Virus record (IMG/VR): IMGVR_UViG_3300009678_000001
DNA length: 64,000 nt
From: a virus
Reading direction: 5' to 3' (one strand)
Positions 6,138-61,628 of the stretch are shown one piece after another; the stretch's first letter is position 1; each line of letters begins with the position of its first letter. The notes beneath the pieces were generated by a model that saw only the letters and a list, made by a program, of their open reading frames with translations, searched no databases and had not been told where the DNA came from. The position numbers and the translations under genes were made by a program.

Positions 6138-6145
6138 AATTACAC
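6138..6145 (-). promoter_or_regulatory. class II motif GTGTAATT
   Basis: AAAATAGTGTAATT lies 11 nt upstream of the portal ATG at 6126 and abuts the terminase stop codon. Confidence 0.35.
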
Positions 6146-39437: not shown

Positions 39438-39662
39438 CTAAGTGTTAAAGTTTTTATCGTCTTCGGCTTCTTTCTGAGACTGGTTCCGAATTTGACTCCC
39501 GATTTGTTCCCAAATTTGTTCTCCAATCTGATTCTTGAAGTGTTTCCAAGTATATAGCCAAATATGATTCCCGGTTTGTTCCAATACTTGGTTATTAATG
39601 CTATCAGATACTTGCGATATCTGCTCCCAAACCGGCTCTTTTTTAAAGACAATAATATCCAT
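39438..39662 (-). CDS. QVWD-repeat family micro-protein
   Basis: 74 aa from MDIIVFKKEPVWEQISQV..NQIGEQIWEQIGSQIRNQ. Confidence 0.55.
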   Translation of the reverse strand: MDIIVFKKEPVWEQISQVSDSINNQVLEQTGNHIWLYTWKHFKNQIGEQIWEQIGSQIRNQSQKEAEDDKNFNT

Positions 39663-40032
39663 AAACACATCTGCTGCCATTTCGGGTGCAATCATGATTG
39701 TCATAAACAACCCCGTCAATAACAGCAACAAAATGTTTACTAACTTGACAAATTAGCTTACCTTTGGGTAGTTCATTAGCTCTCAAGTGAACTTTACAGC
39801 CTTGACCAATAAACATAGTTGGCACCCAAGTCCAACCCAAACTCTTTAAATAGGCTCTCAATACTGACCTTTTTACCCCTCCCTGATAGCCCTTTTTTGG
39901 CCGCAAAGCGTCATAAATCTCCTGATAAGGTTTACCAGTGACAATCGAAACAGCCCTAACAGAACAGTCACCCGTTTTGCCTTTGTAACCAGCATCAACT
40001 CTTCCTCCGTCTGTCAAAACAACATTGTTCAT
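39643..40032 (-). CDS. hypothetical protein with Cys..His..Asp pattern (papain-like peptidase fold possible)
   Basis: 129 aa from the ATG 6 nt after the -10 box. TGDCSVRAVSIVTG ... KHFVAVIDGVVYDNHD. Confidence 0.5.
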   Translation of the reverse strand: MNNVVLTDGGRVDAGYKGKTGDCSVRAVSIVTGKPYQEIYDALRPKKGYQGGVKRSVLRAYLKSLGWTWVPTMFIGQGCKVHLRANELPKGKLICQVSKHFVAVIDGVVYDNHDCTRNGSRCVYGYYCL

Positions 40033-42822: not shown

Positions 42823-43174
42823 GTTCTATTTTAGCGTAAAGAACATCGGGAGGAACTTTAAAGAACAAGGTCAGGGCGTTACAAAGCCAAAAAATCATCC
42901 CCTCAGTTTCCCATTCGTAAAGCGTCCCCGATTCAGGTTGAACTTCTTTGGGACATTTAGTAGCTTTAGCTGTATAGTTAGGGAAAAACTCGTCCGAGAA
43001 AATCAGATTAAAGCCTTTTTTCATGGTAATTTTACCCTTGAGTTTTAACATTCTATCAATTGCTTGTGTTGCTCCTCCTACGAAAGCCTCTGCGACCAAA
43101 CCTAAGGTAGGTTCGTCAAAAACCCAAATTTTGCCTAGCTTATATGGGCGAATTATAAATATTTTATTTTCCAT
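42812..43174 (-). CDS. hypothetical protein
   Basis: 120 aa, TAATG overlap with the macro-domain gene. Confidence 0.65.
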   Translation of the reverse strand: MENKIFIIRPYKLGKIWVFDEPTLGLVAEAFVGGATQAIDRMLKLKGKITMKKGFNLIFSDEFFPNYTAKATKCPKEVQPESGTLYEWETEGMIFWLCNALTLFFKVPPDVLYAKIELDF

Positions 43175-43632
43175 TAAGCTAGTTGATTGATTACGATAAG
43201 CATGTCTGTGTCTTTAAATACTTCTTCAATCATTACCCTGACAATCCTCCAGTTCCCTCCCGCCAAACCGCACCCCATTTTAAAAGGAATTCCAATAGAT
43301 TTAATTCCTTTGGCTACAGCGTCGTTTTTCATTTTGTCGAGGGCTTTATAAAGGGCTTCATAATTTAACGCCCGAAGACCCCCAATTTCAAATTGACCAT
43401 ACAAATTGTAAATATGTTTAATGTAATCGCCTGAAACCTGAGAGACTGAAAAGGTTCCGAGTTTTGTTCTTTTCCCGTAAGAAGTATTCTTGTCTGTTTC
43501 TAACACTTCTGGCCACTGGCGAGCGATAGCAAGAGCTACACCCGCTCCCATGGTGTGAAAACAGTTTGCAACGTGAGCTATAGCATCTGTTTTGGAAAAA
43601 ACAATAGAACGGTTTTGAGTAACGCTATTCAT
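43174..43632 (-). CDS. macro-domain (ADP-ribose binding/hydrolase) protein
   Basis: 152 aa from the ATG 8 nt after the -10 box. AHVANCFHTMGAGVALAI and IGIPFKMGCGLAGGNW match the two Gly-rich macro-domain loops. Confidence 0.65.
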   Translation of the reverse strand: MNSVTQNRSIVFSKTDAIAHVANCFHTMGAGVALAIARQWPEVLETDKNTSYGKRTKLGTFSVSQVSGDYIKHIYNLYGQFEIGGLRALNYEALYKALDKMKNDAVAKGIKSIGIPFKMGCGLAGGNWRIVRVMIEEVFKDTDMLIVINQLA

Positions 43633-43640
43633 AAAAACGC

Positions 43641-43668
43641 ATTCTACAACATCTTTTTCAAACGTCAA
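43641..43668 (-). promoter_or_regulatory. class I promoter
   Basis: TTGACG-16-TAGAAT, 8 nt to the ATG at 43632. The upstream TGA stop lies inside the -35 box. Confidence 0.6.
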
Positions 43669-43919
43669 CAATAATCCAAAACCTCTGTAAAGTCTTGTAT
43701 TTGCTTGGTGCCGCCCTCTGATTCTTTTATTAGTTTAATATAAGTTTCCTTATTAATAGTCCTTGAAGGCATACTGGCTAGTTCTAATGTAAAAATGTCG
43801 GGAGTTGATTGCGCATAACTTGAATGCCTAAACAAACAACCAGTTAGTAAATTAGTAAACTTGTAATAGCCCTCAATATAGACCTTTGCGGTTAGATAGT
43901 AATTGTGGGGAGACAACAT
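43665..43919 (-). CDS. hypothetical protein
   Basis: 84 aa from the Met just after the upstream stop (TAAGATG). Confidence 0.55.
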   Translation of the reverse strand: MLSPHNYYLTAKVYIEGYYKFTNLLTGCLFRHSSYAQSTPDIFTLELASMPSRTINKETYIKLIKESEGGTKQIQDFTEVLDYC

Positions 43920-45016: not shown

Positions 45017-45265
45017 TCAAAATGAGTTTTTGGTAGTTACAAAAACTTGTTCCATAATTTGGAGTCGAACCTGTTCTTGGGTTTGTTCCCAACCTCTTTC
45101 TAATTGGTCCCAAACTTGGTTTCCAACTTGGTTTCCAATTTGATTGCTAAAGTGATACCTAATTTGATTTAGAATTGTTAAATATTTTTTATCCATTTCA
45201 CAAACAGGTCTAAGACAAAAACCATACCGAATGCTAAAACTAATATTAATATAATGTACATTCAT
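45017..45265 (-). CDS. QVWD-repeat family micro-protein
   Basis: 82 aa. ..NQIRYHFSNQIGNQVGNQVWDQLERGWEQTQEQVRLQIMEQV. ATGA overlap with the upstream gene. Confidence 0.55.
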   Translation of the reverse strand: MNVHYINISFSIRYGFCLRPVCEMDKKYLTILNQIRYHFSNQIGNQVGNQVWDQLERGWEQTQEQVRLQIMEQVFVTTKNSF

Positions 45266-45477
45266 TCAACTAAACTGTTGATTTGGTGCTCAATTTGGTA
45301 GCCAATTTCTGCCCACATTTGGTTTTGAGTTTGGTCCCAAACTTTGTTTTCTATGGTTTGATGCCCAATTTGCTTAGAAATTTGAAGTCTTATTAAGTCC
45401 AAAGTATCTGTTAAGACTTGGCACTGAAACCGGTACTGGTCCCTAATTTGGTCTTTTGTTTTAAATCTCTTCAACAC
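45262..45477 (-). CDS. QVWD-repeat family micro-protein
   Basis: 71 aa. ..DQIRDQYRFQCQV..KQIGHQTIENKVWDQTQNQMWAEIGYQIEHQI. Confidence 0.55.
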   Translation of the reverse strand: MLKRFKTKDQIRDQYRFQCQVLTDTLDLIRLQISKQIGHQTIENKVWDQTQNQMWAEIGYQIEHQINSLVE

Positions 45478-46330: not shown

Positions 46331-46358
46331 ATGATAGCGGGTCTTTTTTAAAAATCAA
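46331..46358 (-). promoter_or_regulatory. class I promoter
   Basis: TTGATT-16-TATCAT, 6 nt to the ATG at 46324. Confidence 0.6.
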
Positions 46359-46542
46359 GTCGATTGCTCAAGCCGCTCCTAAAAATTTCACTTACAATTT
46401 GGTCCCAAATTTGCCCCTTAACTTGGTTCCAAGTTTGTCCTCCAATTTGGCTCCCAACTTGTTTCCAAACTTGCTCCCAGACTTGGTCCCCAACTTGGCT
46501 CCAAACTTGGTCTATAATCCTTTCTTTAATTATTTGGGTCAT
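46348..46542 (-). CDS. QVWD-repeat family micro-protein
   Basis: 64 aa. IIDQVWSQVGDQVWEQVWKQVGSQIGGQTWNQVKGQIWDQI. Confidence 0.65.
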   Translation of the reverse strand: MTQIIKERIIDQVWSQVGDQVWEQVWKQVGSQIGGQTWNQVKGQIWDQIVSEIFRSGLSNRLDF

Positions 46543-46548
46543 AAAGGC

Positions 46549-46773
46549 TTAAATTTGGTCCCAAATTGCGTCCTCAAGTTGTTTCCGAAGGTTGTCCCAA
46601 AGTTGTTCCCTAAGTGGATTCCAAACTTGTATAACCTGCATCCAAATTGGGTCCCAAACCTGTTCATCAAGCTGACTTTTAACTTGGTCCCCAACTTGGT
46701 CCCAAATAATCTTACGAATCTCAATATCGGTTTGGTACCAATCCTCCGATAATTTGTCTAGCATCATTTTCAT
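46549..46773 (-). CDS. QVWD-repeat family micro-protein
   Basis: 74 aa. IIWDQVGDQVKSQLDEQVWDPIWMQVIQVWNPLREQLWDNLRKQLEDAIWDQI. Confidence 0.65.
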   Translation of the reverse strand: MKMMLDKLSEDWYQTDIEIRKIIWDQVGDQVKSQLDEQVWDPIWMQVIQVWNPLREQLWDNLRKQLEDAIWDQI

Positions 46774-46811: not shown

Positions 46812-47105
46812 CTAAGGAATTCTTGGTGGCAGTGGTAAAACAATTCCTAATTTAGTAAGGGCTTGTTCATCTGTATTGTTCAACCCGTTATAAATCACTT
46901 TTGTAGCTATATAAAGACACTCGGCTTGTGTCCAATCTGGAAACCTTTTCTCTAAAGAATCACAAAATCTATCCCTTAATTCTTCAACAGGTATGGGATT
47001 AGATTTAGAAACAAATGTAAAAGCAATTTTGAAAACCACGTCTGCTAAAATTTCAGAATTATCACTTAAATCTTTTAAAATTTTTGGTGAAATTTTCATA
47101 ACCAT
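46812..47105 (-). CDS. hypothetical protein
   Basis: 97 aa, overlaps the upstream QVWD gene stop. Confidence 0.6.
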   Translation of the reverse strand: MVMKISPKILKDLSDNSEILADVVFKIAFTFVSKSNPIPVEELRDRFCDSLEKRFPDWTQAECLYIATKVIYNGLNNTDEQALTKLGIVLPLPPRIP

Positions 47106-47311
47106 ATTTGCTCAAGAACTTGGTTCCGAACTTCCATGAAAACGTCATTCCTTATTTGTTCCCTAGATGGGTTTCCAACATGCTTCATAACTTGGCTCCC
47201 AATCTCAGTTCGGTCCCCAACTTGGTCCATAACGTGGTCCCAAACTTGGTCCATAACGCGGTCCCAAACTTGGTCCACAACTTGATACTGAATTTTGGTG
47301 ACTAAGCTCAA
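47096..47311 (-). CDS. QVWD-repeat family micro-protein (TTG start)
   Basis: 71 aa. YQVVDQVWDRVMDQVWDHVMDQVGD.. The TTG start immediately follows the upstream TGA. No nearby ATG. Confidence 0.55.
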   Translation of the reverse strand: MSLVTKIQYQVVDQVWDRVMDQVWDHVMDQVGDRTEIGSQVMKHVGNPSREQIRNDVFMEVRNQVLEQIWL

Positions 47312-47608
47312 TCAATCCGCTTTTGTTTCAACTTCTTCAATAGAATATTCAGGTAAAGCTTTATTAATCCGCAGTTTAACGCGCTCTATAATTGGTTTTA
47401 CCACATCGGGCGCTCTGGCTACGGTTTTGAGTTTATTAGCTCTACCTATAGCTACCCGTAAACCAAAGTCTCTGTTAAACGAGTCTCCAGCATCAATATT
47501 GGTATAGCTCCAGCCAATATGAACCGTTTTGCGGTCATGGTCTTCTACTCCCGCCACAATGCCGCGCCTTTGATTTGTTTTGGGGTCTCTGACAAATTGA
47601 ATAAACAT
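47312..47608 (-). CDS. hypothetical protein
   Basis: 98 aa with its own promoter. Confidence 0.65.
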   Translation of the reverse strand: MFIQFVRDPKTNQRRGIVAGVEDHDRKTVHIGWSYTNIDAGDSFNRDFGLRVAIGRANKLKTVARAPDVVKPIIERVKLRINKALPEYSIEEVETKAD

Positions 47609-47614
47609 ATCTGT

Positions 47615-47642
47615 ATTTTAAATATTTTTTTTAAAAAAGCAA
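47615..47642 (-). promoter_or_regulatory. class I promoter
   Basis: TTGCTT-16-TAAAAT, 6 nt to the ATG at 47608. Confidence 0.55.
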
Positions 47643-47646
47643 GCAA

Positions 47647-48642
47647 TTAATAGTCCTGATTTAAAATCTTGACCGACAGTGATTTACCAAGAATTGGGGA
47701 ATATTTGGGCGTTATTGGTCGCAAAACAATCCCCTCTGCCTTGCGCTCTTGTCCTGTAGATGTGAGATAAATAGCCTTGTTAGCTTCTTCCTGAAGCCGC
47801 GCCATGGTCCAAGTATCATCAAATGTAAAAGGTTCACTAACAGGAATAACCACAGGAATTTGCAATTGGTTGCATAACTCATTTATTTCCTGCCAGTTAT
47901 ACCATTTGCCAGTATCAAATTCTTTAACATTAAAGACAAACATCTGAAAACTGTTCAGGCCCAATGGGTTACCTTGAATTTTGCCCCCGCAAGCCTCTGC
48001 TTGAATAGCAATGTTTTTACCCAACTCTTTAAGCTTAGAAGTTAGATTATATTGGTCTGCAATCTTCCAAAAGCCGGTCCCTTCTTTTTGCTCCAGCCGC
48101 CGACTGCAAACGCGAACTTCACCGTTTTCATAAATCACAGTCATTGAAGAACCGTCAGCTTTGATAGTTAAATAACAAAGTTCATTCCTAAACTCTTCTA
48201 AAATCTCTGGATAGTTTTGAATGTTTTCTTCGTCTGTAATTGAGATTAAATGAGTAGGAAAAGAACCCTTGGCGTCTCCATTAACAGAAGAATCAATAGG
48301 TTTGTCGTATTTTAAAATACCTAAAGCTTCCGAAACGTCCGAACCTTCTTCAACCTGATAGTTATAGCTTGGAATGATAGTTAAAGGGCAAACTAAACCC
48401 TGAGAAGGAGAGCCGCGAAACTTGGCGTTCCAGACACGATATTTTTGCCTTTCTAAAAAACTAAAATAAGAATTCGCGCTAGGAACAATAGAGTCAATAC
48501 GAATAAACACCACTAAATCGCCGTTTTTATATTCTCCCTTCTTAACCACAACAGGCCATTCTTTAATTTTGGCGACTTCAAGAGAGTCGGCGTTGAAATG
48601 TGGTTGGACGCTATGAATTCGTTCAATTGTGGCTAATTTCAT
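47647..48642 (-). CDS. RNA ligase, DRB0094-like (N-terminal OB domain plus nucleotidyltransferase domain)
   Basis: 331 aa. N-terminus MKLATIERIHSVQPHFNADSLEVAKIKEWPVVVKKGEYKNGDLVVFIRIDS. Motif I is the lysine in LTIKADGSS. Confidence 0.75.
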   Translation of the reverse strand: MKLATIERIHSVQPHFNADSLEVAKIKEWPVVVKKGEYKNGDLVVFIRIDSIVPSANSYFSFLERQKYRVWNAKFRGSPSQGLVCPLTIIPSYNYQVEEGSDVSEALGILKYDKPIDSSVNGDAKGSFPTHLISITDEENIQNYPEILEEFRNELCYLTIKADGSSMTVIYENGEVRVCSRRLEQKEGTGFWKIADQYNLTSKLKELGKNIAIQAEACGGKIQGNPLGLNSFQMFVFNVKEFDTGKWYNWQEINELCNQLQIPVVIPVSEPFTFDDTWTMARLQEEANKAIYLTSTGQERKAEGIVLRPITPKYSPILGKSLSVKILNQDY

Positions 48643-48757
48643 TTTAAAAGGTACCCACTAGCGAACTGGCTAGTGGGTGGTTTTTTTTACCTTTACTTAA
48701 CAAGCCTGCAAACCAACAAACAGGTTAATTTGCAGCGTCTTCCCCGAAGACATTTTA
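48643..48757 (-). ncRNA. structured ~110-nt 5-prime leader of the RNA ligase gene (three consecutive hairpins)
   Basis: Minus strand reads GTCTTC-gggg-GAAGAC, CTGCAA-18 nt-TTGCAG and ACCCACTAGC-6 nt-GCTAGTGGGT. This contrasts with the leaderless neighbours. An 18-codon ORF (MSSGKTLQ..) at its 5-prime end is an alternative reading. Confidence 0.4.
48653..48688 (+). terminator. canonical intrinsic terminator oriented on the plus strand
   Basis: 10-bp stem ACCCACTAGC/GCTAGTGGGT followed by GG and T8 on the plus strand, in a region with only minus-strand genes. Confidence 0.5.
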
Positions 48758-48785
48758 ATGATATCAAGCCTTTCTAAAAAGTCAA
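48758..48785 (-). promoter_or_regulatory. class I-like promoter for the RNA ligase leader
   Basis: TTGACT-16-TATCAT. Confidence 0.5.
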
Positions 48786-48786
48786 T

Positions 48787-48809
48787 CTCTCAAGTGCCGA
48801 GGGGCTAAG
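48787..48809 (-). repeat. ISL element (CTC-loop variant)
   Basis: CTTAGCCCCTCGGCACTTGAGAGA abuts TTGACT. Confidence 0.7.
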
Positions 48810-48815
48810 TTTTCG

Positions 48816-48835
48816 CTAAGTGCGCCGCAAGGCTA
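48816..48835 (-). repeat. ISL element (tandem partner)
   Basis: TAGCCTTGCGGCGCACTTAG begins with the TAG stop of 48833..49084. Confidence 0.7.
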
Positions 48836-49084
48836 ATCTTTTTGGTGAACTTTAAATGCTAGTATCTTAGTGGGGTTTGGACAACGCCAACCGTCAGTAA
48901 TACACTCATATCCAAGAGTCCTCAGAACTGTTCTAAAAGTATTTGTTTCACTTAATGATAGTTCTACCGCATCGCCCACATTCATTGTGTTCGCTAAAGT
49001 AATGAGATTCTTTAAGGTTTGTTCTCTTGAACCCCTTCCTTTAGGAATGGGTAAATTTTTATGTATCGTAAAACTTTTAACCAT
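48833..49084 (-). CDS. hypothetical protein
   Basis: 83 aa. Confidence 0.6.
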   Translation of the reverse strand: MVKSFTIHKNLPIPKGRGSREQTLKNLITLANTMNVGDAVELSLSETNTFRTVLRTLGYECITDGWRCPNPTKILAFKVHQKD

Positions 49085-49089
49085 TCGTT

Positions 49090-49521
49090 TTATGGTAAAG
49101 GTAACATTTTACTTGGGATTAGCCTAAATCTATCTTTTTTGTTTTTGCTTTGAATATATCTTTTAATATCATCGTGTCTTCCATAAATACCCCTTTCAGA
49201 GTATTGATAAGGCTCCCATGCACCGTATCCATCCCAATCGGTACAAAACTCAATTACTATCTGAAAAACGGGCGCTTTTAAGTGAACCCATTTTCCTAGC
49301 TTAGAATCATAAACATGTACTCCAGCATTATCATAATATTTTTTGCGCTCTATTTCTTTATAGGTTGTGCCGCCTTTATTGCCACATTTCGGACAATATT
49401 CCCAAGGGTCTTCAATATTTAAAGTAAACTGTTTATGGCAGCTTAAGCATTTAAAACGAGCATAATGGCCATCTCCATGGTCTTCTTGCCATTTGGGACT
49501 AATTTGTAATAAAGTTCTCAT
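49090..49521 (-). CDS. zinc-ribbon protein
   Basis: 143 aa. CLSCHK..CPKCGN. Confidence 0.65.
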   Translation of the reverse strand: MRTLLQISPKWQEDHGDGHYARFKCLSCHKQFTLNIEDPWEYCPKCGNKGGTTYKEIERKKYYDNAGVHVYDSKLGKWVHLKAPVFQIVIEFCTDWDGYGAWEPYQYSERGIYGRHDDIKRYIQSKNKKDRFRLIPSKMLPLP

Positions 49522-49532
49522 ACAGGGCTATT

Positions 49533-49757
49533 TTATTTTTGGTCCCAAACTTGGTCCTCAACTTGGTCCCAAACTTGGCCCTGAACTTGGTCCCAAACTT
49601 GGTCCCGAACTTGGTCCCGAACTTGGTCCCGAACTTGGTCCCGAACTTGGTCCCGAACTTGGTCCCAAACTTGGTCCCAAACTTGGTCCCAAACTTGGTC
49701 CCGAACTTGGTCCCGAACTTGGTCCCAAACTTGGTCCTCAACTTGACCCTCAATCAT
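49533..49757 (-). CDS. QVWD-repeat family micro-protein, hyper-regular member
   Basis: 74 aa consisting almost only of DQVW/DQVR units. The ATG and the minus-strand context favour this frame over the three other open frames. Confidence 0.6.
49541..49750. repeat. near-perfect 12-bp tandem array, about 17.5 units (ACTTGGTCCCRA)
   Basis: Read directly. The units differ mostly at one A/G position (Trp vs Arg codon on the minus strand). The outermost units carry a few other changes. Confidence 0.95.
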
Positions 49758-49770
49758 AAAGATTTAGTTT

Positions 49771-49896
49771 TTAATTCCTCAACTTGCCAATAAACTTGGT
49801 CTTTAATTTGTTACCATTAACTTGGTTCCAAACTTGGTCCCCAACTTGGTTCCGAACTTGGCCCCAAACTTGGCCCCAAACTTGGTCCGCGTTCAT
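49771..49896 (-). CDS. QVWD-repeat family micro-protein (below the ORF-track cutoff)
   Basis: 41 aa: MNADQVWGQVWGQVRNQVGDQVWNQVNGNKLKTKFIGKLRN. Confidence 0.5.
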   Translation of the reverse strand: MNADQVWGQVWGQVRNQVGDQVWNQVNGNKLKTKFIGKLRN

Positions 49897-49903
49897 AAAA
49901 GAA

Positions 49904-49925
49904 GGGTAGCCCCGCAAGGCTACCC
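49904..49925 (-). repeat. ISL-related 8-bp hairpin / terminator-like
   Basis: GGGTAGCC-ttgcgg-GGCTACCC-TTCTTTT-ATG, downstream of the DUF932-like gene. Confidence 0.6.
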
Positions 49926-49934
49926 CAAATTAAC

Positions 49935-50939
49935 CTAATTTTTTGGCAAGGTTAAGTCCTGTAGGAGTAAATCAGTAGCCCTCTGTTTGAGATTAGCTCC
50001 AGTACCAAGTAGCGCCGATTCAAACTTTGCTTCCTGTCTATTAGCTCCTTCTTCTGCTCTGGTGCTTCTTTTTTGGTCAACAAATTCAGTTATACTGTTT
50101 AGGTAATCATACCTTGTCTCGCCTACATTCCCTGTGCCACGCTGAAAAAGTTCTGTTACCTGCTCTCGAATATTCTCAGTTCTTGAGCTACATTCATAAA
50201 GTCCAGTTTCCTTATTCAATTTCCCCGGAAACAAGGTTTCATTGTACCTAACTACCTCTTCTTCATTGCATTTCTGGTCTTTGAGCATTTTCAAGACTAG
50301 CTCCAGCCGCCCAAAATAACCATAAGCAATTCCGAGCGCCCTTTGAACTTCCTCTTTGTGACTCTTAAAACTTTTGGTATGGCGCATCTTAACCTGATTC
50401 TTTGCGCCTTTTAGGGCTGCATTAAGGGTGTTTTGACAGACTACCCGCACCGCTACATTCTGCATCCATACTGAGTGCGTACCATCGTGGCTTGAAATCA
50501 TCAAAATCCACTTGTCCATCTTATCGCTAGGGTCAATATACATGGTTTCTGGCAGCTTGGCCATAATCCAGATTTTGCGCCCCTCTCTTAAAGACCCCGC
50601 AGTCTCATAAACTGCCTGACCTTCAGAAATAACCGAATCAAAAAATTCAAAAGCTTCCTCGTTTTGGACTGGCGTATATCGATTACCTACCACTCCCAGT
50701 TTAACCCCATTGTCCTCCCTTACAACAGCTTTATAATCTTCAAATTCAGAAAGACCACTCTCTGTCTGAATAAAAATTGGCTCTTTGCGAACCCTCCAAT
50801 CCAAATGCGCCAATTGGATTGCTTCTTTGGCTGTAACTGTTCCTTTGACAACGCTTCCCAATGAATGCCAAGGAACTATATTATTACCGCTAAAAGTTTC
50901 CGCAGTGCCGTCTTCTCTAATTGTTATTTCGTGTGACAT
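49935..50939 (-). CDS. DUF932-like (phage/plasmid TIGR03299-type) protein
   Basis: 334 aa. ..NIVPWHSLGSVV..TAKEAIQLAHLDWRVRKEPIF..AVVREDNGVKLGVVGNRYTPVQNEEAFEFFD..ETAGSLREGRKIWI matches the family pattern. Confidence 0.7.
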   Translation of the reverse strand: MSHEITIREDGTAETFSGNNIVPWHSLGSVVKGTVTAKEAIQLAHLDWRVRKEPIFIQTESGLSEFEDYKAVVREDNGVKLGVVGNRYTPVQNEEAFEFFDSVISEGQAVYETAGSLREGRKIWIMAKLPETMYIDPSDKMDKWILMISSHDGTHSVWMQNVAVRVVCQNTLNAALKGAKNQVKMRHTKSFKSHKEEVQRALGIAYGYFGRLELVLKMLKDQKCNEEEVVRYNETLFPGKLNKETGLYECSSRTENIREQVTELFQRGTGNVGETRYDYLNSITEFVDQKRSTRAEEGANRQEAKFESALLGTGANLKQRATDLLLQDLTLPKN

Positions 50940-50969
50940 ATTGTTTTACAAGTTTGTTTATCTGTCTAC

Positions 50970-50997
50970 AGCATAACAAATCTTTTTAAACCGTCAA
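50970..50997 (-). promoter_or_regulatory. class I promoter (30-nt leader)
   Basis: TTGACG-16-TATGCT. The upstream TGA stop lies inside the -35 box. Confidence 0.55.
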
Positions 50998-51176
50998 CAG
51001 GTTTCTTTTGAAAGTCTCCCCACTGCTTTTTCAAGTGCAACCATCTTAACCTCAAGTGGTTGCCCAGTCAAAAAAGCAACCAAAAGAGATTGAGACAAAT
51101 CTTCTATTATCACATCAGCCTCTTTTGGAGGAGTAGTACGAGTTTGTGTCCTAATTTTAGACAGGCAGTTCTTCAT
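50994..51176 (-). CDS. hypothetical protein
   Basis: 60 aa, ATGA overlap with the upstream gene. Confidence 0.5.
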   Translation of the reverse strand: MKNCLSKIRTQTRTTPPKEADVIIEDLSQSLLVAFLTGQPLEVKMVALEKAVGRLSKETC

Positions 51177-51409
51177 TGTTTCTTTATAAAAATTACGCTC
51201 TCTTCAAGCCCGAAAGCCCAAAGAAAATTATTCCAACCTCTGTGTCCTAGTCCGCGCATTTTCCAGACTATTCTTTTAGTATCATGAGCATTTTTGATTA
51301 ACCAGTCTTGTTTTTGTTCTCTAGACCAGTTAACGTTGTATATTTCATCCACAGGAAAGAATCTTGTGTTGTCAGCTAAAAAATCTTCAATTTCTGGTAA
51401 ATTTGGCAT
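51173..51409 (-). CDS. hypothetical protein
   Basis: 78 aa. ATG preceded by an ISL. Confidence 0.6.
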   Translation of the reverse strand: MPNLPEIEDFLADNTRFFPVDEIYNVNWSREQKQDWLIKNAHDTKRIVWKMRGLGHRGWNNFLWAFGLEESVIFIKKQ

Positions 51410-51430
51410 TGCTCAAGCGCCGCAAGGCTA
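51410..51430 (-). repeat. ISL element
   Basis: TAGCCTTGCGGCGCTTGAGCA-ATG. Confidence 0.8.
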
Positions 51431-51616
51431 GTTTATTTTTAGGTCTCTAACTTGGTCCCAAATTTGTCCCACAACTTGGCTTCTAAATTGGTCCTGTATT
51501 TGGCTTTGGCCCCAAATTTGTTTCTTGGTTTCATGCCCAACTTGGTCCCAAATTTCGCTCCAAATTTGGTCCCAAACTTGGTCCCGAACTTGTCTTTTTA
51601 TTAAATTACTATTCAT
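51428..51616 (-). CDS. QVWD-repeat family micro-protein
   Basis: 62 aa. [45 protein letters not shown]. Confidence 0.65.
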   Translation of the reverse strand: MNSNLIKRQVRDQVWDQIWSEIWDQVGHETKKQIWGQSQIQDQFRSQVVGQIWDQVRDLKIN

Positions 51617-51872
51617 TCAAATAATCATCGGGATTAACTTCTTCGCCAACATCGTCTTCTTCAGTTAAAGGAGAACCACAAATAGCACAAATTTCTTCTA
51701 AAAGCGAATAGCTGCTATGCGCTCCGCCATCTCCCTCTTGAACCAATACTTCAACCAGTTTATAGACGCGCCAATTGACTAACTCTGCTAATACTGGCAA
51801 GTCTTCCTTGGTAGGAGGCCAACAAGAGGCGCAAAGGTCTAAATGTTGGTCGTTAAGTCTTATTCTAGGCAT
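51609..51872 (-). CDS. hypothetical acidic protein with CxxC pairs
   Basis: 87 aa. CASCW..CAICGSPL. Confidence 0.6.
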   Translation of the reverse strand: MPRIRLNDQHLDLCASCWPPTKEDLPVLAELVNWRVYKLVEVLVQEGDGGAHSSYSLLEEICAICGSPLTEEDDVGEEVNPDDYLNE

Positions 51873-51895
51873 CTCTCAAGCGCCGAGGGGCTAAG
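51873..51895 (-). repeat. ISL element (CTC-loop variant)
   Basis: CTTAGCCCCTCGGCGCTTGAGAG-ATG. Confidence 0.75.
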
Positions 51896-51896
51896 T

Positions 51897-51912
51897 TTTC
51901 GCCGCAGGGCTA
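51897..51912 (-). repeat. ISL element (tandem partner, truncated)
   Basis: TAGCCCTGCGGCGAAAA begins with the TAG stop of 51910..52116. Confidence 0.65.
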
Positions 51913-52116
51913 GTTTATTTTTATGTTCCAAATGTGTTCCACAACTTGGCCTTCTACTTCTTCCCCAACTTCTTCCCAAACTTGGCCCCAAACTTGTTCA
52001 AAAACCTGTTCCCAAACTTGACCTTCTACTTGGTCCCAAATTTGTTCCCCAATATGGTTATGAACTTGGCTCCTAATTTGGTCATCAATTTGCTTCCTAA
52101 TGTTATCTTTCGTCAT
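51910..52116 (-). CDS. QVWD-repeat family micro-protein
   Basis: 68 aa. MTKDNIRKQIDDQIRSQVHNHIGEQIWDQVEGQVWEQVFEQVWGQVWEEV..KIN*. Confidence 0.65.
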   Translation of the reverse strand: MTKDNIRKQIDDQIRSQVHNHIGEQIWDQVEGQVWEQVFEQVWGQVWEEVGEEVEGQVVEHIWNIKIN

Positions 52117-52340
52117 TAACGCGCCGATTTAAATTCTGGTATTTCCATCCAATGCGCCCGAACTGAAGGTAAAGCTATTGTACTCGTATAAGTTAAATCA
52201 TTGTCCGTCATAACAATAATTTTTGTGCCTTGCTGCTCCCATCTTCCAGTAATTTGCTGCCATCCCTCTTTCCGTTTAAGAGACCAAAGAACGGTGGTTT
52301 TTTGTGGAGGTTTCTCTTTCTCGAAATTCTTCCAAATCAT
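52116..52340 (-). CDS. hypothetical protein
   Basis: 74 aa from the ATG 7 nt after the -10 box. TAATG junction downstream. Confidence 0.55.
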   Translation of the reverse strand: MIWKNFEKEKPPQKTTVLWSLKRKEGWQQITGRWEQQGTKIIVMTDNDLTYTSTIALPSVRAHWMEIPEFKSAR

Positions 52341-52347
52341 AAAAACG

Positions 52348-52375
52348 ATGATAATAAAAGTTTTTAAAATGTCAA
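52348..52375 (-). promoter_or_regulatory. class I promoter
   Basis: TTGACA-16-TATCAT, 7 nt to the ATG at 52340. Confidence 0.55.
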
Positions 52376-52398
52376 TGCTCAAGCGCCGCAGGGCTTAA
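52376..52398 (-). repeat. ISL element (consensus)
   Basis: TTAAGCCCTGCGGCGCTTGAGCAT abuts TTGACA. Confidence 0.8.
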
Positions 52399-52407
52399 GC
52401 CCTTTTT

Positions 52408-52641
52408 TTAAAACGCCGAGGGGCTAAGCGCCATAGGGGGTTCTGTGTTCCAAGCTTGGTGCCAAATTTGGTTTTCTACTTGGCTCCCAATCTGTTCCCA
52501 AACTTGGTCCCAAATCTGTTCCCAAACTTGGCCCCAAACTTGGCCTTCTATTTGGTTCCAAATTTGGTCCCCAATATGGTGGTCCCCAATATGGTCCCTA
52601 ACTTGGTCCATAACTTGGTTCTGAATGTTGTCTCTTGTCAT
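52408..52641 (-). CDS. QVWD-repeat family micro-protein
   Basis: 77 aa. MTRDNIQNQVMDQVRDHIGD..QIWNQIEGQVWGQVWEQIWDQVWEQIGSQVENQIW. Confidence 0.65.
   Translation of the reverse strand: MTRDNIQNQVMDQVRDHIGDHHIGDQIWNQIEGQVWGQVWEQIWDQVWEQIGSQVENQIWHQAWNTEPPMALSPSAF
52410..52432 (-). repeat. ISL element embedded in the 3-prime end of a CDS
   Basis: GGCGCTTAGCCCCTCGGCGTTTTAA is translated as ..ALSPSAF*. Confidence 0.7.
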
Positions 52642-52655
52642 GTTCTTAAGGAGGG

Positions 52656-52865
52656 CTAGGTTTCACTAAAACATTTATTTGAAATTTGTATCATAACTTC
52701 ATGCCGTAATTGGTTCCAGTGTTCCTGACCTTGGTAAACTTGGTCCCCAACTTGGTTCCAAACTGCTTGGTTCCCAACTAGGTTTTGAATACTCTTAAAA
52801 GTTTGCCCCAAAACGCCATTATATAACTGATGATGTAACTGATTCTCAATCTTATTTCTAGTCAT
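52656..52865 (-). CDS. QVWD-repeat family micro-protein (divergent)
   Basis: 69 aa. MTRNKIENQLHHQLYNGVLGQ..NLVGNQAVWNQVGDQVYQGQEHWNQL. Confidence 0.55.
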   Translation of the reverse strand: MTRNKIENQLHHQLYNGVLGQTFKSIQNLVGNQAVWNQVGDQVYQGQEHWNQLRHEVMIQISNKCFSET

Positions 52866-53067
52866 GTGTCTCTAAAACTTGGTCCCCAACTTGGGTCCTA
52901 ACTTGGTTCCGAATTTCTTCTAAAGATGGATGTAAAAAACGTCGCCCCCAAAGTAACGGGTGCGAAGTCGGGTCTTGGATTTGATTATAAATTTGCTTCA
53001 AAATTTGGTCCCAAGTTTGGCCCCAAACTTTTGCGAACACCTGACTCTTAATCTCATCTTTGGTCAT
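52858..53067 (-). CDS. QVWD-repeat family micro-protein (divergent)
   Basis: 69 aa from MTKDEIKSQVFAKVWGQTWDQILKQIYNQIQD..IRNQVRTQVGDQV. Confidence 0.55.
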   Translation of the reverse strand: MTKDEIKSQVFAKVWGQTWDQILKQIYNQIQDPTSHPLLWGRRFLHPSLEEIRNQVRTQVGDQVLETHD

Positions 53068-53071
53068 GTTT

Positions 53072-53278
53072 TTAGTAAATTTTGCTGCACCGAAAAACTT
53101 GGTACAAAATTTCATTTTTAATTTCATACCTTATTTGTGGGTCCCAATAATCCTGAATTTGGTTATGAACCTGCTTGCTAATTTGGTTGCCAGCTTGGTT
53201 GAACAACGGTCTTACAACAAGTTCCGAAGTTTGACCCCGAACAAAAGCATCCTGATTCTCAATCTTATCTTGGGTCAT
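53072..53278 (-). CDS. QVWD-repeat family micro-protein (divergent)
   Basis: 68 aa. MTQDKIENQDAF..NQAGNQISKQVHNQIQDYWDPQIRYEIKNEILYQV. Confidence 0.5.
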   Translation of the reverse strand: MTQDKIENQDAFVRGQTSELVVRPLFNQAGNQISKQVHNQIQDYWDPQIRYEIKNEILYQVFRCSKIY

Positions 53279-54002
53279 ATTTTATTAAAAAAGGTAAATA
53301 CAATTTAATACAAATCTCAGTAGCCACTTTTTCATCAAAACAATATGTAATCGTTCGTTTTTCAAAAGCTTTGTCTAATTCTTTTTCAGCTTCATCTACT
53401 TGTTTGTTTAAATCTTCTTTTTTGTAATTAGCTGGATTAGTTTTAATATCTATTAACCGCGCCGCAAAATCAGGGTTATATTTTTTGACATTAACGGGAA
53501 AAATCCCGTCAGTAAAAAAATACTTACCAGCCCAAGCAAGCCTAAATAATTGCACCGCATTCTTAAAAGAATAGCCAAACTCTTCTACCGCCTTGTGCCG
53601 CTTTGAACCTAAAAGCCCAGTCCGCTCGCCGTTCATCAATCTTCTTTCCCCAAACATGTAGCCTTTTAAAGATTTATATAAATGTTTACTATCAAGCAAA
53701 GAAAATTTATGAGTAAGGATTAACGCCCATTCTGGAGAGGGTTTAAAATTCGGCGCTTCATCTGTAAAAAGCAATTCTAAAGCCTGAGTGTTAGTCTTTC
53801 TTAAGCTGGATAAAAAATGTCGAAGCTCAAAAAGAAAAGTATCATCATTTTCTTTTTTAATATCCTGATGGTCGAACCTTTGGAGACCAATAATCTTTTC
53901 GGGTTCTTCGTTTAAAAAACAACCCCTAGCGTCCAAGTCGGACGCTGGAGTATTTAAACCGTAAGCATGACTTCCACCAAGAGTTGAGTAAATAATCTTC
54001 AT
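53265..54002 (-). CDS. pol-beta superfamily nucleotidyltransferase (RNA-repair-associated type suspected)
   Basis: 245 aa. N-terminal LGGSHAYGLNTPASDLDARG fits the hG[GS]-x(9-13)-DhD motif. Overall shape resembles the PF10127-type predicted nucleotidyltransferases. Confidence 0.65.
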   Translation of the reverse strand: MKIIYSTLGGSHAYGLNTPASDLDARGCFLNEEPEKIIGLQRFDHQDIKKENDDTFLFELRHFLSSLRKTNTQALELLFTDEAPNFKPSPEWALILTHKFSLLDSKHLYKSLKGYMFGERRLMNGERTGLLGSKRHKAVEEFGYSFKNAVQLFRLAWAGKYFFTDGIFPVNVKKYNPDFAARLIDIKTNPANYKKEDLNKQVDEAEKELDKAFEKRTITYCFDEKVATEICIKLYLPFLIKYDPR

Positions 54003-55498: not shown

Positions 55499-55722
55499 AC
55501 ATTAATAAAAACAATTTCTAAAAGCGTTTCTTTCACAATCCCGCTACGCAAATCAGATTGCGGCCAAAACATTGCATCCATTTGACTTCTAAAACGGTTG
55601 TTAACTTGCGCACTAATTTTGTCAAGAATAAACCATTCAGTTTTTTGAATTTCTACTCCGACGCTGTTGTGAACGCTGTTTTCTACTTTATTAAGCCGCA
55701 CTGACAAATCGTCCATTTTCAT
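55495..55722 (-). CDS. hypothetical protein
   Basis: 75 aa, overlaps the rIIB-like gene end by 32 nt. Confidence 0.5.
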   Translation of the reverse strand: MKMDDLSVRLNKVENSVHNSVGVEIQKTEWFILDKISAQVNNRFRSQMDAMFWPQSDLRSGIVKETLLEIVFINV

Positions 55723-56596
55723 CGCGCTTATTGTAATAAGTCACCTTAACCTTACCAAGCTTGTTTTTTTCGCTTGCAAACCTGCCAAAGGAGTCGCGCT
55801 TAGGGTTGAAAGCTTTAAGCCTGTTCCCTGTCACTTTACCAGAATACAGCCTTTCTGTCAAGATGTTGCCATTTTCCCATTTTCCAACCACCGAAACAGG
55901 AAGATATCTCCAAGCTCTGCCTTTGGACTTATTTAAATCTTGCGGGATTGCAACAACATCCATTGGATTAACTTTGACAACAACAACTTTAGTTTTGTTG
56001 TTTATAATACCCCCATAATAAGGCAAATAGGAATAAGAACAAAAATGTAGCCCATTTGAACAAAGCCTGATTCTGCTTGGGTCTACTTCATTGGGGTCCA
56101 TTTTGACAATCTTGCCAATAGCATGTTTCAAATGAGTGCCATCAGGAGACTTGTTATAGGAAGTCATGTCTTCTCTCAGCATCTTATAAGCAAGAAAACA
56201 CCCGTCATCAGTAATAGGCATCTCTCCATTTTCAAGAAAATCGTACAGTTCGTTTCGTGCATCTTCTGAAGGATTTTTATAGAGATTAGCCAAAAACCTC
56301 ACATAAGGTTCATAAGGGAAACCTCCTTGGACAAACTGTAAAATGCGCTTAACCAAGGTCCCATGAATTTCCTGTCCGTCATAATAAATCGCGCCGCTGT
56401 GGACTTTCACTTTGCCGTAGCTATGCTTTAGGATAGCGCCGGGAAGGTCCATTGCTTCAATCAGCTTCTTGTAATTCTTCTGTCTGTAAAACTCAAGAGC
56501 CTTTTGCCAATTTGGGTGGGTTGAATTGATGGAGTGCCGTTTACCATCTACCACCACAACCAGCACGTTGCCGTTAAAAATTGCTGAAACGTTCAT
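55691..56596 (-). CDS. rIIB: rIIB-like protein
   Basis: 301 aa. Blocks VVVDGKRHSINSTHPNWQKALE, GAIYYDGQEIHGTLVKRIL, YVRFLANLYKNPS, DDGCFLAYK, SNGLHFCSYSY and VVKVNPMDVVAIP parallel T4 rIIB as I recall it. Lies near an rIIA-like gene. Confidence 0.65.
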   Translation of the reverse strand: MNVSAIFNGNVLVVVVDGKRHSINSTHPNWQKALEFYRQKNYKKLIEAMDLPGAILKHSYGKVKVHSGAIYYDGQEIHGTLVKRILQFVQGGFPYEPYVRFLANLYKNPSEDARNELYDFLENGEMPITDDGCFLAYKMLREDMTSYNKSPDGTHLKHAIGKIVKMDPNEVDPSRIRLCSNGLHFCSYSYLPYYGGIINNKTKVVVVKVNPMDVVAIPQDLNKSKGRAWRYLPVSVVGKWENGNILTERLYSGKVTGNRLKAFNPKRDSFGRFASEKNKLGKVKVTYYNKRDENGRFVSAA

Positions 56597-56861: not shown

Positions 56862-57078
56862 AAAAAATCTGGTTCCAATGGTTTAGAAGGTATTCCCAAA
56901 TTGGGTCTGCAACATCCTCAATCGTAAGTGCAATACTGTCTCTTTGGTCCCAAATCAGGTCTCTTACTGACTGCCCAACGTGGCTTACAATTTGGTCAAC
57001 AAGGTGGTCGTCAGATTCATGAATTCGATTTCTAATTTGATAAAGAGTTTCGCTCTCAATTTTGGTTAAATATATCAT
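56848..57078 (-). CDS. QVWD-repeat family micro-protein (divergent)
   Basis: 76 aa. ..YQIRNRIHESDDHLVDQIVSHVGQSVRDLIWDQRD..ADPIWEYLLNHWNQI. Confidence 0.5.
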   Translation of the reverse strand: MIYLTKIESETLYQIRNRIHESDDHLVDQIVSHVGQSVRDLIWDQRDSIALTIEDVADPIWEYLLNHWNQIFYESK

Positions 57079-59180
57079 TTTTCCCTTATATAAGCCAAAA
57101 GGTCTTTTTGAATGTCTTCTTCCTCTTTCTCAAAACCGTAACTTTCCATTGCGTGTTTGATATAAGAATACAAAGGATAGTGTTTTAAAACATCGCTCTT
57201 AAGGCTCGCAAAATCAACACTGGGCGTTTTAGTGCTTTCAGTCGCAAGCATGAAACCTTTCTTTGCCGAATTAATTACATTAATAATAGCAAGTTTTTGG
57301 CGTGCCTTTTTGGAAGCAACCTCTAGCTTAATATAGGCTCTCAAAAGCTCCGCAAAGGGAGAATCTTTTTTCACGCCAGACCATTTATACTCGCCCAAAT
57401 AACTTTCCTCTATGCTGTCAAAAGCCTCTTTGTCTGCAATAAGCTGAGAAAGGTCTTCTTTGGCTATAGTCGCCTCAACCGCTTGAATTAAGTAATCCTT
57501 AAGAGTAACCCATTCGCTCAAATCTTCTTTAGCCACCAAAGCTTTCTTAAAACCATAGACTACAGGAACAGGATAATTAAGAGAACGTAAGGTGTCTAAA
57601 ACCGACTGAATAAATTTTGACCGTTTTTTGTCGTTTTCTTCCCAACAAACTTCATACCTGTCAATTTCAACATAGACCCCGCCCTCTTCAAGGTCTACTT
57701 CTGCAATATCCCAAAAATCACTTTTAGCCCTGCCATCAGGATTAAATACAAAGACCTTTTTGGAATTCTTCTCATTATTACCATTATAGGTATTGGGGGG
57801 CACAGGAAGCTCTTTAACCGACTTAAGTTGGGGAACCAAGTCTTCAAGCCCCATCTCTTTAAGTAGTAGCTCCCGATATTCGGGCTTAGTTGCCACAATC
57901 ATCCAAACATATTCACAATAAGTTTCTTTAAAATGATAGGAAACCCTGCTCTTACACCTTGTTGCGTCTTTAATGTAGACTTGCAAGTCTTTCTTAAAAG
58001 GCAATCTGTCTACAATCTCTAAAGATACCTTTTTGCGCCCGTTCCTATACCAACGCTCAATGAAAACATCATTGGGCTGTAGATTATTACGCTTATAAAA
58101 GTCTTCAGGAACCATAAAGTTAGTCCCCTTGACAGACTGACCGCCAAACTGAAGGTCTAAACCCTCAATAATATAGCGCAAGTTGCTGCTATAAGCTCCA
58201 TCTAGAAACAAATCAGCCCAAATTTCTCTGGCGTTCCAAAGAGTTCTGGCACTGGCAAATTTAGCCTTTACCGTCTCTTCAAATCCACCAATAATTTCTC
58301 GACATAAAAGCAAAATAGCATTCTTGGTCTTATCTGTATATTGTAAACCTTCCCGATTAACCGCAATATCAAGGTCGCCAATATTAAAATGAAACACTAA
58401 ACCAGACTGAAGAAGACGTTCTAGTTTAGCATCAAGACTGGTAAAAACACTGGCGCGAATGGGATATGCAACCTGCCCCATTACCGCATAAGAAGTGGTT
58501 TGATTCTTATACATCACCCAATTCTTACCACTAAAAGCCTCTTCCAGTGGAATTTGGTTATAGTAACGATTCCCTATAATTTTTGGCGCAACCTTCCAAA
58601 ACCTAAAAACATCCTGTGCTTTTAGTCGAAATTCTTCAAAATCAAATTCATTAACAGGGACAATAATTTCAATCCCATCTGGCTCTTCAGTGGGGCTTTT
58701 ATCCATTTGGGCAATACGCCCTTCCTGTGAAGGGTCAATGAAAGCAGTGTAAGTAGTCTTAACGCCTTCCTGATAACTTACAATAGAAAAACTGTCCCCG
58801 TAAGCAAAACCCGACTTGGAACCAATCCCCAACATCCCAATAGTCGCATTGGAATTTCTTTTCGTTGATTTGCAATACTTTACATAGGTATTGGTTACAT
58901 CTTCATCGCTGAGGCCAGTCCCAAAATCGCGCACTCGAAACTCTGGTTCCAAAACATTAGGCAAGTGAACTTGGATAGGAAGGTCCCCTTTTCCAGCCTC
59001 TACATTAGCGTCATAAGCATTACAGCTATATTCCCTGATAACAGCCTTGGTCTTATCCTCATAAAGACTGTTCCGTAGAATATGAAAAAGCATTGAAAAG
59101 TCTTGGGCATCAATCCCAAAACTATTCACTTTCAAATCACCTTCTGTTTCAAGAATCCGGCTCTGTTGTGTTAAAATCAT
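57075..59180 (-). CDS. rIIA: rIIA-like protein (N-terminal GHKL/HATPase_c domain)
   Basis: 701 aa. N-box VIREYSCNAYDAN, G1 VRDFGTGLS, G2 GMLGIGSKSGFAYGDSFSIVSY, DGIEIIVPV. Size and block order parallel T4 rIIA. Confidence 0.78.
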   Translation of the reverse strand: MILTQQSRILETEGDLKVNSFGIDAQDFSMLFHILRNSLYEDKTKAVIREYSCNAYDANVEAGKGDLPIQVHLPNVLEPEFRVRDFGTGLSDEDVTNTYVKYCKSTKRNSNATIGMLGIGSKSGFAYGDSFSIVSYQEGVKTTYTAFIDPSQEGRIAQMDKSPTEEPDGIEIIVPVNEFDFEEFRLKAQDVFRFWKVAPKIIGNRYYNQIPLEEAFSGKNWVMYKNQTTSYAVMGQVAYPIRASVFTSLDAKLERLLQSGLVFHFNIGDLDIAVNREGLQYTDKTKNAILLLCREIIGGFEETVKAKFASARTLWNAREIWADLFLDGAYSSNLRYIIEGLDLQFGGQSVKGTNFMVPEDFYKRNNLQPNDVFIERWYRNGRKKVSLEIVDRLPFKKDLQVYIKDATRCKSRVSYHFKETYCEYVWMIVATKPEYRELLLKEMGLEDLVPQLKSVKELPVPPNTYNGNNEKNSKKVFVFNPDGRAKSDFWDIAEVDLEEGGVYVEIDRYEVCWEENDKKRSKFIQSVLDTLRSLNYPVPVVYGFKKALVAKEDLSEWVTLKDYLIQAVEATIAKEDLSQLIADKEAFDSIEESYLGEYKWSGVKKDSPFAELLRAYIKLEVASKKARQKLAIINVINSAKKGFMLATESTKTPSVDFASLKSDVLKHYPLYSYIKHAMESYGFEKEEEDIQKDLLAYIREK

Positions 59181-59980: not shown

Positions 59981-60292
59981 TCAGTCCGCCACTTTCCGAA
60001 CCATTTCTTGGAAGTAATCGTACTCCCGAACCCTGCCCACTTCCCACAACCCCTTATCAAGAGTGATAGGGGCGTGCTCTTCATGGACAACGGTCGCTGA
60101 CTTTTCCAGAGAGAGAAGAATTCTCTCGCCTTCCTGAATCAGTTCAAACTCGTCCTCTGCTTCGAGAATGTGACTGTGACCAGACTCGCCATGTGCTACC
60201 ACATAATGTCTTAGTTTTGTGACCTTGGCTTCCTTGGAAGGAGGTTGGGTCACCCTTTTGAACAGAACGTCGCCTTGTTGTGCGGTTTTCAT
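59981..60292 (-). CDS. hypothetical protein (conserved phage GDV..HGESGHSH type)
   Basis: 103 aa. QQGDVLFKRV..VVAHGESGHSHILE. Confidence 0.6.
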   Translation of the reverse strand: MKTAQQGDVLFKRVTQPPSKEAKVTKLRHYVVAHGESGHSHILEAEDEFELIQEGERILLSLEKSATVVHEEHAPITLDKGLWEVGRVREYDYFQEMVRKVAD

Positions 60293-61387: not shown

Positions 61388-61415
61388 ATGGTAACAAAAC
61401 TTTTTGAAATGTCAA
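61388..61415 (-). promoter_or_regulatory. class I promoter (32-nt leader)
   Basis: TTGACA-16-TACCAT. The upstream TGA stop lies inside the -35 box. Confidence 0.5.
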
Positions 61416-61606: not shown

Positions 61607-61628
61607 ATATTCAAGCGCCGAGAGACTA
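61607..61628 (-). repeat. ISL element (variant)
   Basis: TAGTCTCTCGGCGCTTGAATAT-ATG. Confidence 0.65.

Follow-up and report, generated by a model that had tools for sequence, protein, structure and literature searches.

The window analyzed in this study is a 64,000-nucleotide stretch of viral DNA (IMG/VR record IMGVR_UViG_3300009678_000001), in which a gene for the terminase large subunit (6145–8022) and an RIIA-like gene (57075–59180) are markers of phage DNA. The subject of the analysis is a small minus-strand gene at 49533–49757 that consists almost entirely of a 12-bp tandem array, together with a second array next to it. According to Tandem Repeats Finder (TRF), the large array occupies positions 49539–49745 with a period of 12, 17.2 copies, 91% matches and no indels, and its score of 323 is the highest in the window, in good agreement with a preliminary description of the DNA that had placed a head-to-tail array of about 17.5 units at 49541–49750. 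The unit reads CAAGTT-NGG-GAC on the minus strand. Twelve consecutive units form a core (49584–49727, minus strand) in which only one base varies, giving either TGG (Trp) or CGG (Arg), so that the single A/G site proposed previously is found as described. A further perfect unit lies outside the core at 49560, and the four outer or interspersed units, which carry two or three changes each, encode E, E and Q-G. When two mismatches at most are allowed, the 12-mer AACTTGGTCCCA occurs 78 times in the window (nearly always in the + strand orientation), against a mean of 5.45 in shuffled sequences, and none of 100 shuffles reached 78. The second array, with 5.8 units and 86% matches by TRF, extends over 49819–49888 on the minus strand; its presence had been recognized, but its extent and unit number had been overestimated (49800–49890, about seven units). 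The large array is confirmed to be real and to be a piece of something larger than the interval to which it was first assigned.

The gene containing the large array is an open reading frame (ORF) running from ATG to TAA, with the pattern (DQV[W/R])n ending in DQK and the stop codon. Its predicted product is a tetrapeptide-repeat protein of 74 amino acids, MIEG-(QVxD)17-QK, with an isoelectric point of 4.05 and a net charge of −11.5, to which the array contributes everything except MIEG at the N-terminus and two residues at the C-terminus. Public annotation contains the gene as 74 amino acids in an identical JGI contig (L002) and as 42 amino acids in an ENA contig (L001). A model calculated with AlphaFold2 (AF2) from an alignment of 30 sequences is a single helix over residues 2–73, with a mean predicted local distance difference test (pLDDT) score of 92.5. 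Standard helix geometry corresponds to approximately 6 Å and 40 degrees per unit, so helices of about 11 nm for 17 units and 6 nm for nine units would be expected from the model.

The second array is located in a sibling ORF of 40 amino acids plus a stop codon (49771–49893, minus strand), which is not called as a gene in either of the two contigs mentioned above. A 41-residue sibling encoded by this array had been reported previously; the ORF itself exists, but three-frame translation reveals a frameshift that had been overlooked. Only the first 26 amino acids are in the family frame, and a 1-nt frameshift places the last 14, KLKTKFIGKLRN, out of frame. The displaced continuation in the family frame, 18 residues long, is found at 49754–49810 on the minus strand, and ends in a TGA that shares bases with the start codon of the large-array gene (ATGA). 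The sibling looks like a frameshifted copy of a family member, and the sequence suggests that it and the large-array gene were once translationally coupled.

The number of units was compared with that in other contigs. The ENA contig k141_1231447 (assembly ERZ27267619; L001, L062) is 100% identical to positions 39090–64000 of the window over 24.9 kb except for a 96-bp deletion, which corresponds to eight units, is in frame and lies exactly in the large array, leaving nine units instead of 17. The nine-unit allele has the pattern E-W-R-R-W-Q-W-E-W and encodes the 42-residue protein. All of the 'mismatches' to this contig that were reported by BLAST fall inside the ambiguous overlap of the indel. 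The eight missing units lie within or overlap the core at 49584–49727, and the deletion is bounded by two copies of an R-R-W context with 47 bp in common. The 17-unit allele recurs unchanged in the JGI contig. No difference was seen in 13 further arrays of lower purity within the stretch that was compared; the array that differs between two otherwise identical genomes is the most homogeneous one. Changes of length in steps of four amino acids without a frameshift had been predicted for this locus, together with the proposal that unit numbers be compared across related genomes, and the comparison supports the prediction.

Similar differences were found among relatives containing DUF6745 (PF20530), a family the members of which carry the same repeat, as described below. 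In one pair of such proteins (P0056 and P0057) the flanks are identical and the arrays are a net 12 units apart, and another pair (P0132 and P0134) is distinguished by a clean 14-unit deletion. Furthermore, a metagenome-assembled genome (MAG) of Ca. Marinacidobacterales contains eight matches to the DUF6745 gene (L012–L017, L019 and L042). Five of these copies (L012 and L014–L017) lie in a phage-like module of approximately 3.1 kb with 96–98% identity, and their arrays differ in the number and content of units. In this module a RuvC-like gene is found upstream and DNA methyltransferase genes downstream; L013 duplicates L012. These comparisons of assembled sequences show that arrays gain and lose whole units in frame, both here and in the DUF6745 proteins, which supports the earlier characterization of the locus as a rapidly evolving in-frame repeat.

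The reading frame was examined separately, given that all of the frames are open across the array, as had been stated: five open frames of at least 56 amino acids are listed, and the sixth (TWSQ/R) is free of stop codons by its unit composition. The minus-strand DQV[W/R] frame chosen in the preliminary description was right. However, this assignment does not depend on context alone, as was thought at that time. In the public gene calls, the array gene and ten paralogues are read in the QVW frame, and several paralogues have a common in-frame N-terminal motif, MT+D.I..Q. Valine is encoded by GTT in the window, by GTA in a JGI contig (L005) and by GTC in an unrelated 331-kb contig (L007), with the xQVW peptide retained in each, and in DUF6745 homologues the repeat has globular domains joined in frame at either end. 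On this sequence evidence, QVW can be regarded as settled as the correct frame.

The codons of the family show a characteristic pattern. Among 146 units, the first codon positions are the most variable (D 0.24, V 0.34 and W 0.36), and the third positions are nearly invariant (CAA 0.09 and GTT 0.07). It follows that, in the QVW frame, the A/G site and most of the variation in the family are non-synonymous. The fourth residue of the repeat is encoded by an NGG codon (TGG, GGG, CGG or AGG) in all four lineages examined, and the first by NNC in the window, L005 and the Acidobacteriota arrays (L012/L016) and by NNT in L007. In the Acidobacteriota arrays glycine is always GGG at position 4 and always GGC at position 1. 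This fixed-codon pattern means that the amino-acid diversity goes back to single-base changes in one founder unit, and that synonymous drift is absent within a genome. Family genes in the window are skewed towards the codons of the founder 12-mer when compared with the other genes of the window (GAC 81% versus 42%, GGG 44% versus 18%, CGG 25% versus 9% and GTT 83% versus 56%), reflecting shared DNA ancestry inside the genome. Such a pattern would be expected from rapid turnover of units combined with amino-acid changes that are tolerated or favoured at positions 1 and 4 of the repeat.

The array gene is not isolated. At least 18 more short ORFs on the minus strand, 40–90 amino acids long and with xQ[V/I][W/G/R] units, are distributed over 45.0–47.3, 51.4–53.3 and 61.4–62.0 kb and at 39.4 kb. 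Six paralogues of 62–89 amino acids (51428–51616, 51910–52116, 52408–52641, 52656–52865, 52858–53127 and 53072–53278) are all called in the QVW frame in the ENA contig. Four of five others (45017–45265, 45262–45477, 46348–46542, 46549–46773 and 47096–47311) are also called there, the uncalled one being 47096–47311, which has a TTG start. Three more (61412–61606, 61626–61811 and 61828–62013) have an AcrVA2-like gene on one side and the DUF6745 gene of the window on the other, and a more distant paralogue, 88 amino acids long as called, lies at 39438–39704; all are on the minus strand. Degenerate remnants of the repeat were observed at about 34.5, 38.2 and 56.7 kb.

Searches with the small proteins returned little. 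Nothing above threshold was obtained with Pfam, PHROGs, NCBIfam and PADLOC, and sub-threshold matches of family members to DUF4816 and GvpQ were attributed to composition and rejected. Neither the 74-residue nor the 42-residue allele is present in the clustered protein collection. Among 50,697 phage records, megablast with positions 47000–53500 gave no match, and tblastn with one paralogue gave only the DUF6745 protein of a Mycobacterium abscessus prophage. No credible match to PDB sequences was obtained with the family profile or with the DUF6745 protein. The neighbouring gene downstream, which encodes 143 amino acids, had no relatives in the viral and metagenome contig collections, and a homologue search gave a single match with 50% identity (L061).

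A profile built from 30 family sequences matched 3268 cluster representatives at E ≤ 1e-3, of which 527 reach E ≤ 1e-10. The top matches are mostly proteins of 350–600 amino acids in which an array starts at about residues 70–250, and DUF6745 was present in six of ten that were sampled. The window itself encodes a DUF6745 protein of 339 amino acids (60336–61355, minus strand; Pfam PF20530, E 3.7e-14), which retains a degenerate remnant of a tetrapeptide array at about residues 76–135; its AF2 model has confident N- and C-terminal domains and a low-confidence linker. Homologues of this gene consist of an N-terminal domain of approximately 75 amino acids, then a long tetrapeptide array and then a C-terminal domain, and the arrays are of the types SQV[W/G/R/E/S], DSV[W/R/G], ANL[W/G/R] and SAV[Y/N/R]. 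The 74-residue protein resembles these proteins in its x-[Q/S/N]-[V/I/L]-[W/G/R] units with an NGG codon for the fourth residue, in the alternation of W, G and R through this codon, and in the whole-unit length differences between near-identical copies; the repeats are homologous, as the profile from the small proteins matches the DUF6745 arrays. In contrast, the 74-residue protein has no Pfam match to PF20530, ends two residues past the array and lacks the N-terminal domain of about 75 amino acids (LTxEQ...W...GL.T...SP; compare P0003, P0006 and P0050). The sequence comparisons show that the stand-alone repeat is the same module as the variable central segment of phage and prophage DUF6745 proteins.

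DUF6745 genes are widely distributed: MAGs from Acidobacteriota, Nitrospirota, Planctomycetota and further phyla contain them, and the surroundings are often phage-like. The M. abscessus prophage prophiGD102-1 encodes in gp38 a DUF6745 protein of 481 amino acids with about 50 (D/G)QL(W/R/G) units, and the DUF6745 homologues of Microcystis phages Ma-LMM01 and MaMV have no tetrapeptide array. The unrelated 331-kb contig (L007) also contains several stand-alone small QVW genes. A Foldseek search with the DUF6745 model gave no match in the PDB (best E 0.29) and recovered only the DUF6745 protein of Ma-LMM01 from BFVD. A literature search for DUF6745, DUF4816 and the motif strings found no papers, and no function of DUF6745 is described. 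A long acidic period-4 array (E-D-[Q/E]-[V/I]) was also seen fused to a subtilase domain in a protein of 741 amino acids (P0215); the subtilase of the window (17275–19371), one of its few + strand genes, has no array.

The closest parallel in design is gp54 of the mycobacteriophage Tweety. This protein has a 12-bp repeat unit in which two residues and the third codon positions are invariant and Gly alternates with Trp, and the repeat numbers are 48, 26 and 15 in Tweety gp54, Che8 gp57 and PMC gp51, respectively (PMC2884959). According to a review, Tweety mutants that escape the prophage-encoded Phrann gp29/gp30 defence gain or lose repeats, which tunes activity against this defence (PMC9262239). 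The array gene of the window shares with gp54 an in-frame 12-bp unit with two invariant and two variable residues, fixed third codon positions, the first and second being variable (with Gly/Trp among the exchanges), and a repeat number that varies between close relatives, here 17 versus nine in assembled contigs. However, the gp54 unit is A-A-[G/W/Q]-[S/Y] and belongs to a high-GC phage, gp54 has unique N- and C-terminal regions whereas the 74-residue protein is array only, and in the present genome the module has been multiplied into at least 18 small genes. Homology was rejected (hhalign probability 0.1% against A3 and 0.02% against A2), so the relation is one of analogy and not of membership. 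To our knowledge, Tweety gp54 is the only studied example of such an adjustable tetrapeptide-repeat design.

Two other known systems can be compared. The VR2 region in bbp36 of Bordetella phage BMP-1 is an in-frame variable-number tandem repeat, as cited in PMC2884959. The array gene is similar to this region, and to contingency loci in general, in having a homogeneous short tandem repeat in a coding frame with a unit number that differs between isolates; for the array gene, the two length alleles come from different assemblies. In the strict sense of variation that is selected for a phenotype, the locus is a candidate contingency locus. Single alpha-helix (ER/K-type) spacer domains are rich in E, K and R. 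The predicted protein resembles them in forming one long helix in the AF2 model, the length of which would scale with repeat number, and the D and R residues of DQVR units, spaced i to i+3, could form salt bridges, but its composition is D/Q/V/W/R.

The preferred explanation, to which a probability of about 60% is assigned, is that the locus encodes an acidic helical QV[W/R]D protein that undergoes in-frame turnover of units and serves as an adjustable element in phage–host conflict. Replication slippage or unequal recombination between near-identical 12-mers would add and remove units; single-base changes at first codon positions, above all in the NGG codon, exchange Trp, Arg and Gly. The module could act as a mutationally adjustable helical element, for example in counter-defence, as the analogy to Tweety gp54 and the gene neighbourhood suggest. 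In DUF6745 proteins the array may set the spacing between the two domains, and in the stand-alone proteins the helix itself may be the interacting surface. With respect to the neighbourhood, counter-defence-type genes between 54284 and 62981 include the AcrVA2-like gene (61974–62981) and a gene similar to T4 rIIB (55691–56596), both taken from precomputed Pfam annotations that a local copy of Pfam did not reproduce, and the RIIA-like gene flanks the DUF6745 gene and three of the small repeat genes. Genes for an RNA ligase, RlaP and a Macro-domain protein are counted with them. By association, this neighbourhood fits a counter-defence role.

Several points weigh against this explanation. The neighbourhood argument is one of guilt by association, the analogy to gp54 is accompanied by the absence of homology, and the stand-alone proteins do not have the flanking domains that a spacer model requires. 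AF2 leans towards helices for periodic sequences, and a period of 4.0 on a helix of 3.6 residues per turn does not produce a straight hydrophobic stripe. Expression of the 74-residue gene is a prediction. Furthermore, the adjacent sibling is frameshifted, meaning that family members do decay, and L061, with the sole distant homologue of the downstream gene, has no array gene adjacent to it. Finally, the comparison of alleles is based on assembled contigs, and collapse of the array in one assembly is possible.

This last point leads to the explanation that the array is stable and that the length difference is an artefact, produced by an assembler that collapsed or mis-threaded a repeat longer than a read. 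The large array, at 204 bp, exceeds typical short reads, and assemblies do suffer in such regions: the short-read Logan contigs L003 and L004 end inside the large array and L008 inside a similar one, and L005 has a run of N at about 586–650 within its array. The deletion between two copies of an identical 47-bp context is also what a collapse could yield. However, the nine-unit array is only 108 bp long, shorter than the k-mer size of 141 used for that contig, and its W-R-R-W-Q junction would require k-mers of more than 47 nt that are missing from the 17-unit allele. Read support for the junction would therefore be expected, and the nine-unit allele is judged more likely to be real than collapsed. 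The aperiodic W/R pattern of the 17-unit allele is, moreover, identical in the separately recorded JGI contig, and at least three further pairs or groups of nearly identical relatives also differ by whole units. An assembly artefact is accordingly considered to be unlikely. A somewhat different explanation accepts the variation but regards it as neutral, the minisatellite having expanded in a dispensable small ORF so that the gene is a decaying or functionless by-product. The frameshifted sibling, the degenerate remnants at three sites, the absence of the 74-residue sequence from the clustered protein collection and the lack of an array gene beside the distant homologue in L061 would all be in keeping with this. 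On the other hand, at least 15 paralogues have intact ORFs from ATG to stop and tile without gaps, the repeat peptide is retained across genomes despite different codons, the same small genes occur in the unrelated 331-kb contig, and the variation affects positions 1 and 4 but leaves Q and V conserved. A functionless by-product is hence a rather improbable reading of the family.

It might also be supposed that the repeat acts as DNA or RNA, as iterons that bind a protein or as a structured transcript, or that it is translated in the GTKF frame of the minus strand or the antisense LVPN frame of the + strand. The A/G site and most of the family variation (12-mer positions 1, 7 and 10) are synonymous in both of these frames, a property that the preliminary description, although correct on the Trp/Arg alternation, had overlooked; in addition, none of the arrays interrupts the LVPN frame, and all of the copies have a single orientation. 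Nevertheless, the GTKF frame was rejected owing to stop codons that interrupt it in diverged members, and the LVPN frame was rejected since its peptide would turn into LVPY in L005 and LVPD in L007, with no change in QVW. The flanking genes and the public gene calls are all on the minus strand, homologues read through from the QVW frame into globular domains, and arrays elsewhere have different DNA with the same peptide design. These possibilities are very improbable. The same applies with still greater force to mutagenesis by a diversity-generating retroelement (DGR) as the source of the NGG and NNC variation. Variation at first and second codon positions with a fixed third position does resemble the product of AAC codons in a template repeat, but the two adenines of CAA are nearly invariant (0.08–0.09) while first positions occupied by G and T vary, and the DGR mechanism was rejected on this ground. 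The variable units are, furthermore, tandem copies and not a template/variable pair, and no reverse transcriptase was found among about 35 ORFs of the window in a scan that was not exhaustive.

A broader proposal can be formulated, namely that the stand-alone xQV[W/R/G] helices represent a new class of fast-evolving small phage proteins for anti-defence or host takeover and that the large DUF6745 superfamily, with its thousands of members from phages and prophages of numerous phyla, uses the module as a general adjustable ruler between two domains. Slippage would reset the number of units, and single-base changes in NGG would reset the surface pattern of W, R and G. This proposal is tentative and the odds are against it; were it true, the mechanism of Tweety gp54 would be a widespread strategy and not a curiosity of mycobacteriophages. 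The same design as in gp54 is present in an unrelated and much larger family that comprises the DUF6745 proteins and the stand-alone repeat derivatives. If the analogy is valid, a 12-bp in-frame array with NGG at one position and fixed third codon positions would be a signature by which adjustable counter-defence genes could be recognized in uncultured phages. In practical terms, the arrays break short-read assemblies and all of the frames can stay open, so that such genes are truncated, miscalled or missing in databases. Many database homologues are truncated at the repeat because contigs break in arrays; P0003, which ends in DQVR, is an example. The LVPN frame, in which most of the family variation is synonymous, is a trap for gene callers, and a + strand ORF of 117 amino acids in this frame (46399–46752) covers two minus-strand genes.

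Other features of the region were also recorded. The ends of the ENA contig overlap by exactly 141 bp (its k-mer size), corresponding to positions 53380–53520 of the window, and from this overlap a circular genome of about 208.7 kb can be deduced; the break point of the contig is inside the cluster of repeat genes. A terminator-like GC hairpin is located 3′ of a DUF932 gene (49903–49926, minus strand), and its T-tail runs into the ATG of the sibling ORF. Scans for sigma-70 promoters gave nothing informative. A near-identical 29-nt hairpin, TCTCTCAAG[T/C]GCCGAGGGGCTAAGTTTTC, occurs twice in intergenic positions, at 48786–48804 and 51872–51890. Among the repeat genes are those for a Macro-domain protein (43174–43671), an RNA ligase with a PHA02142 OB domain (47647–48642) and an RlaP RNA-repair nucleotidyltransferase (53265–54002), which together look like an RNA-repair and ADP-ribose toolkit. 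Finally, a protein of approximately 105 amino acids (QQGDVL...GH.H...), which has no Pfam match, is encoded beside the DUF6745 gene in the window (59981–60292, 103 amino acids), in the Acidobacteriota MAG (L012, 2684–3004) and in the JGI contig L005 (2–175), and the two genes form a conserved pair.

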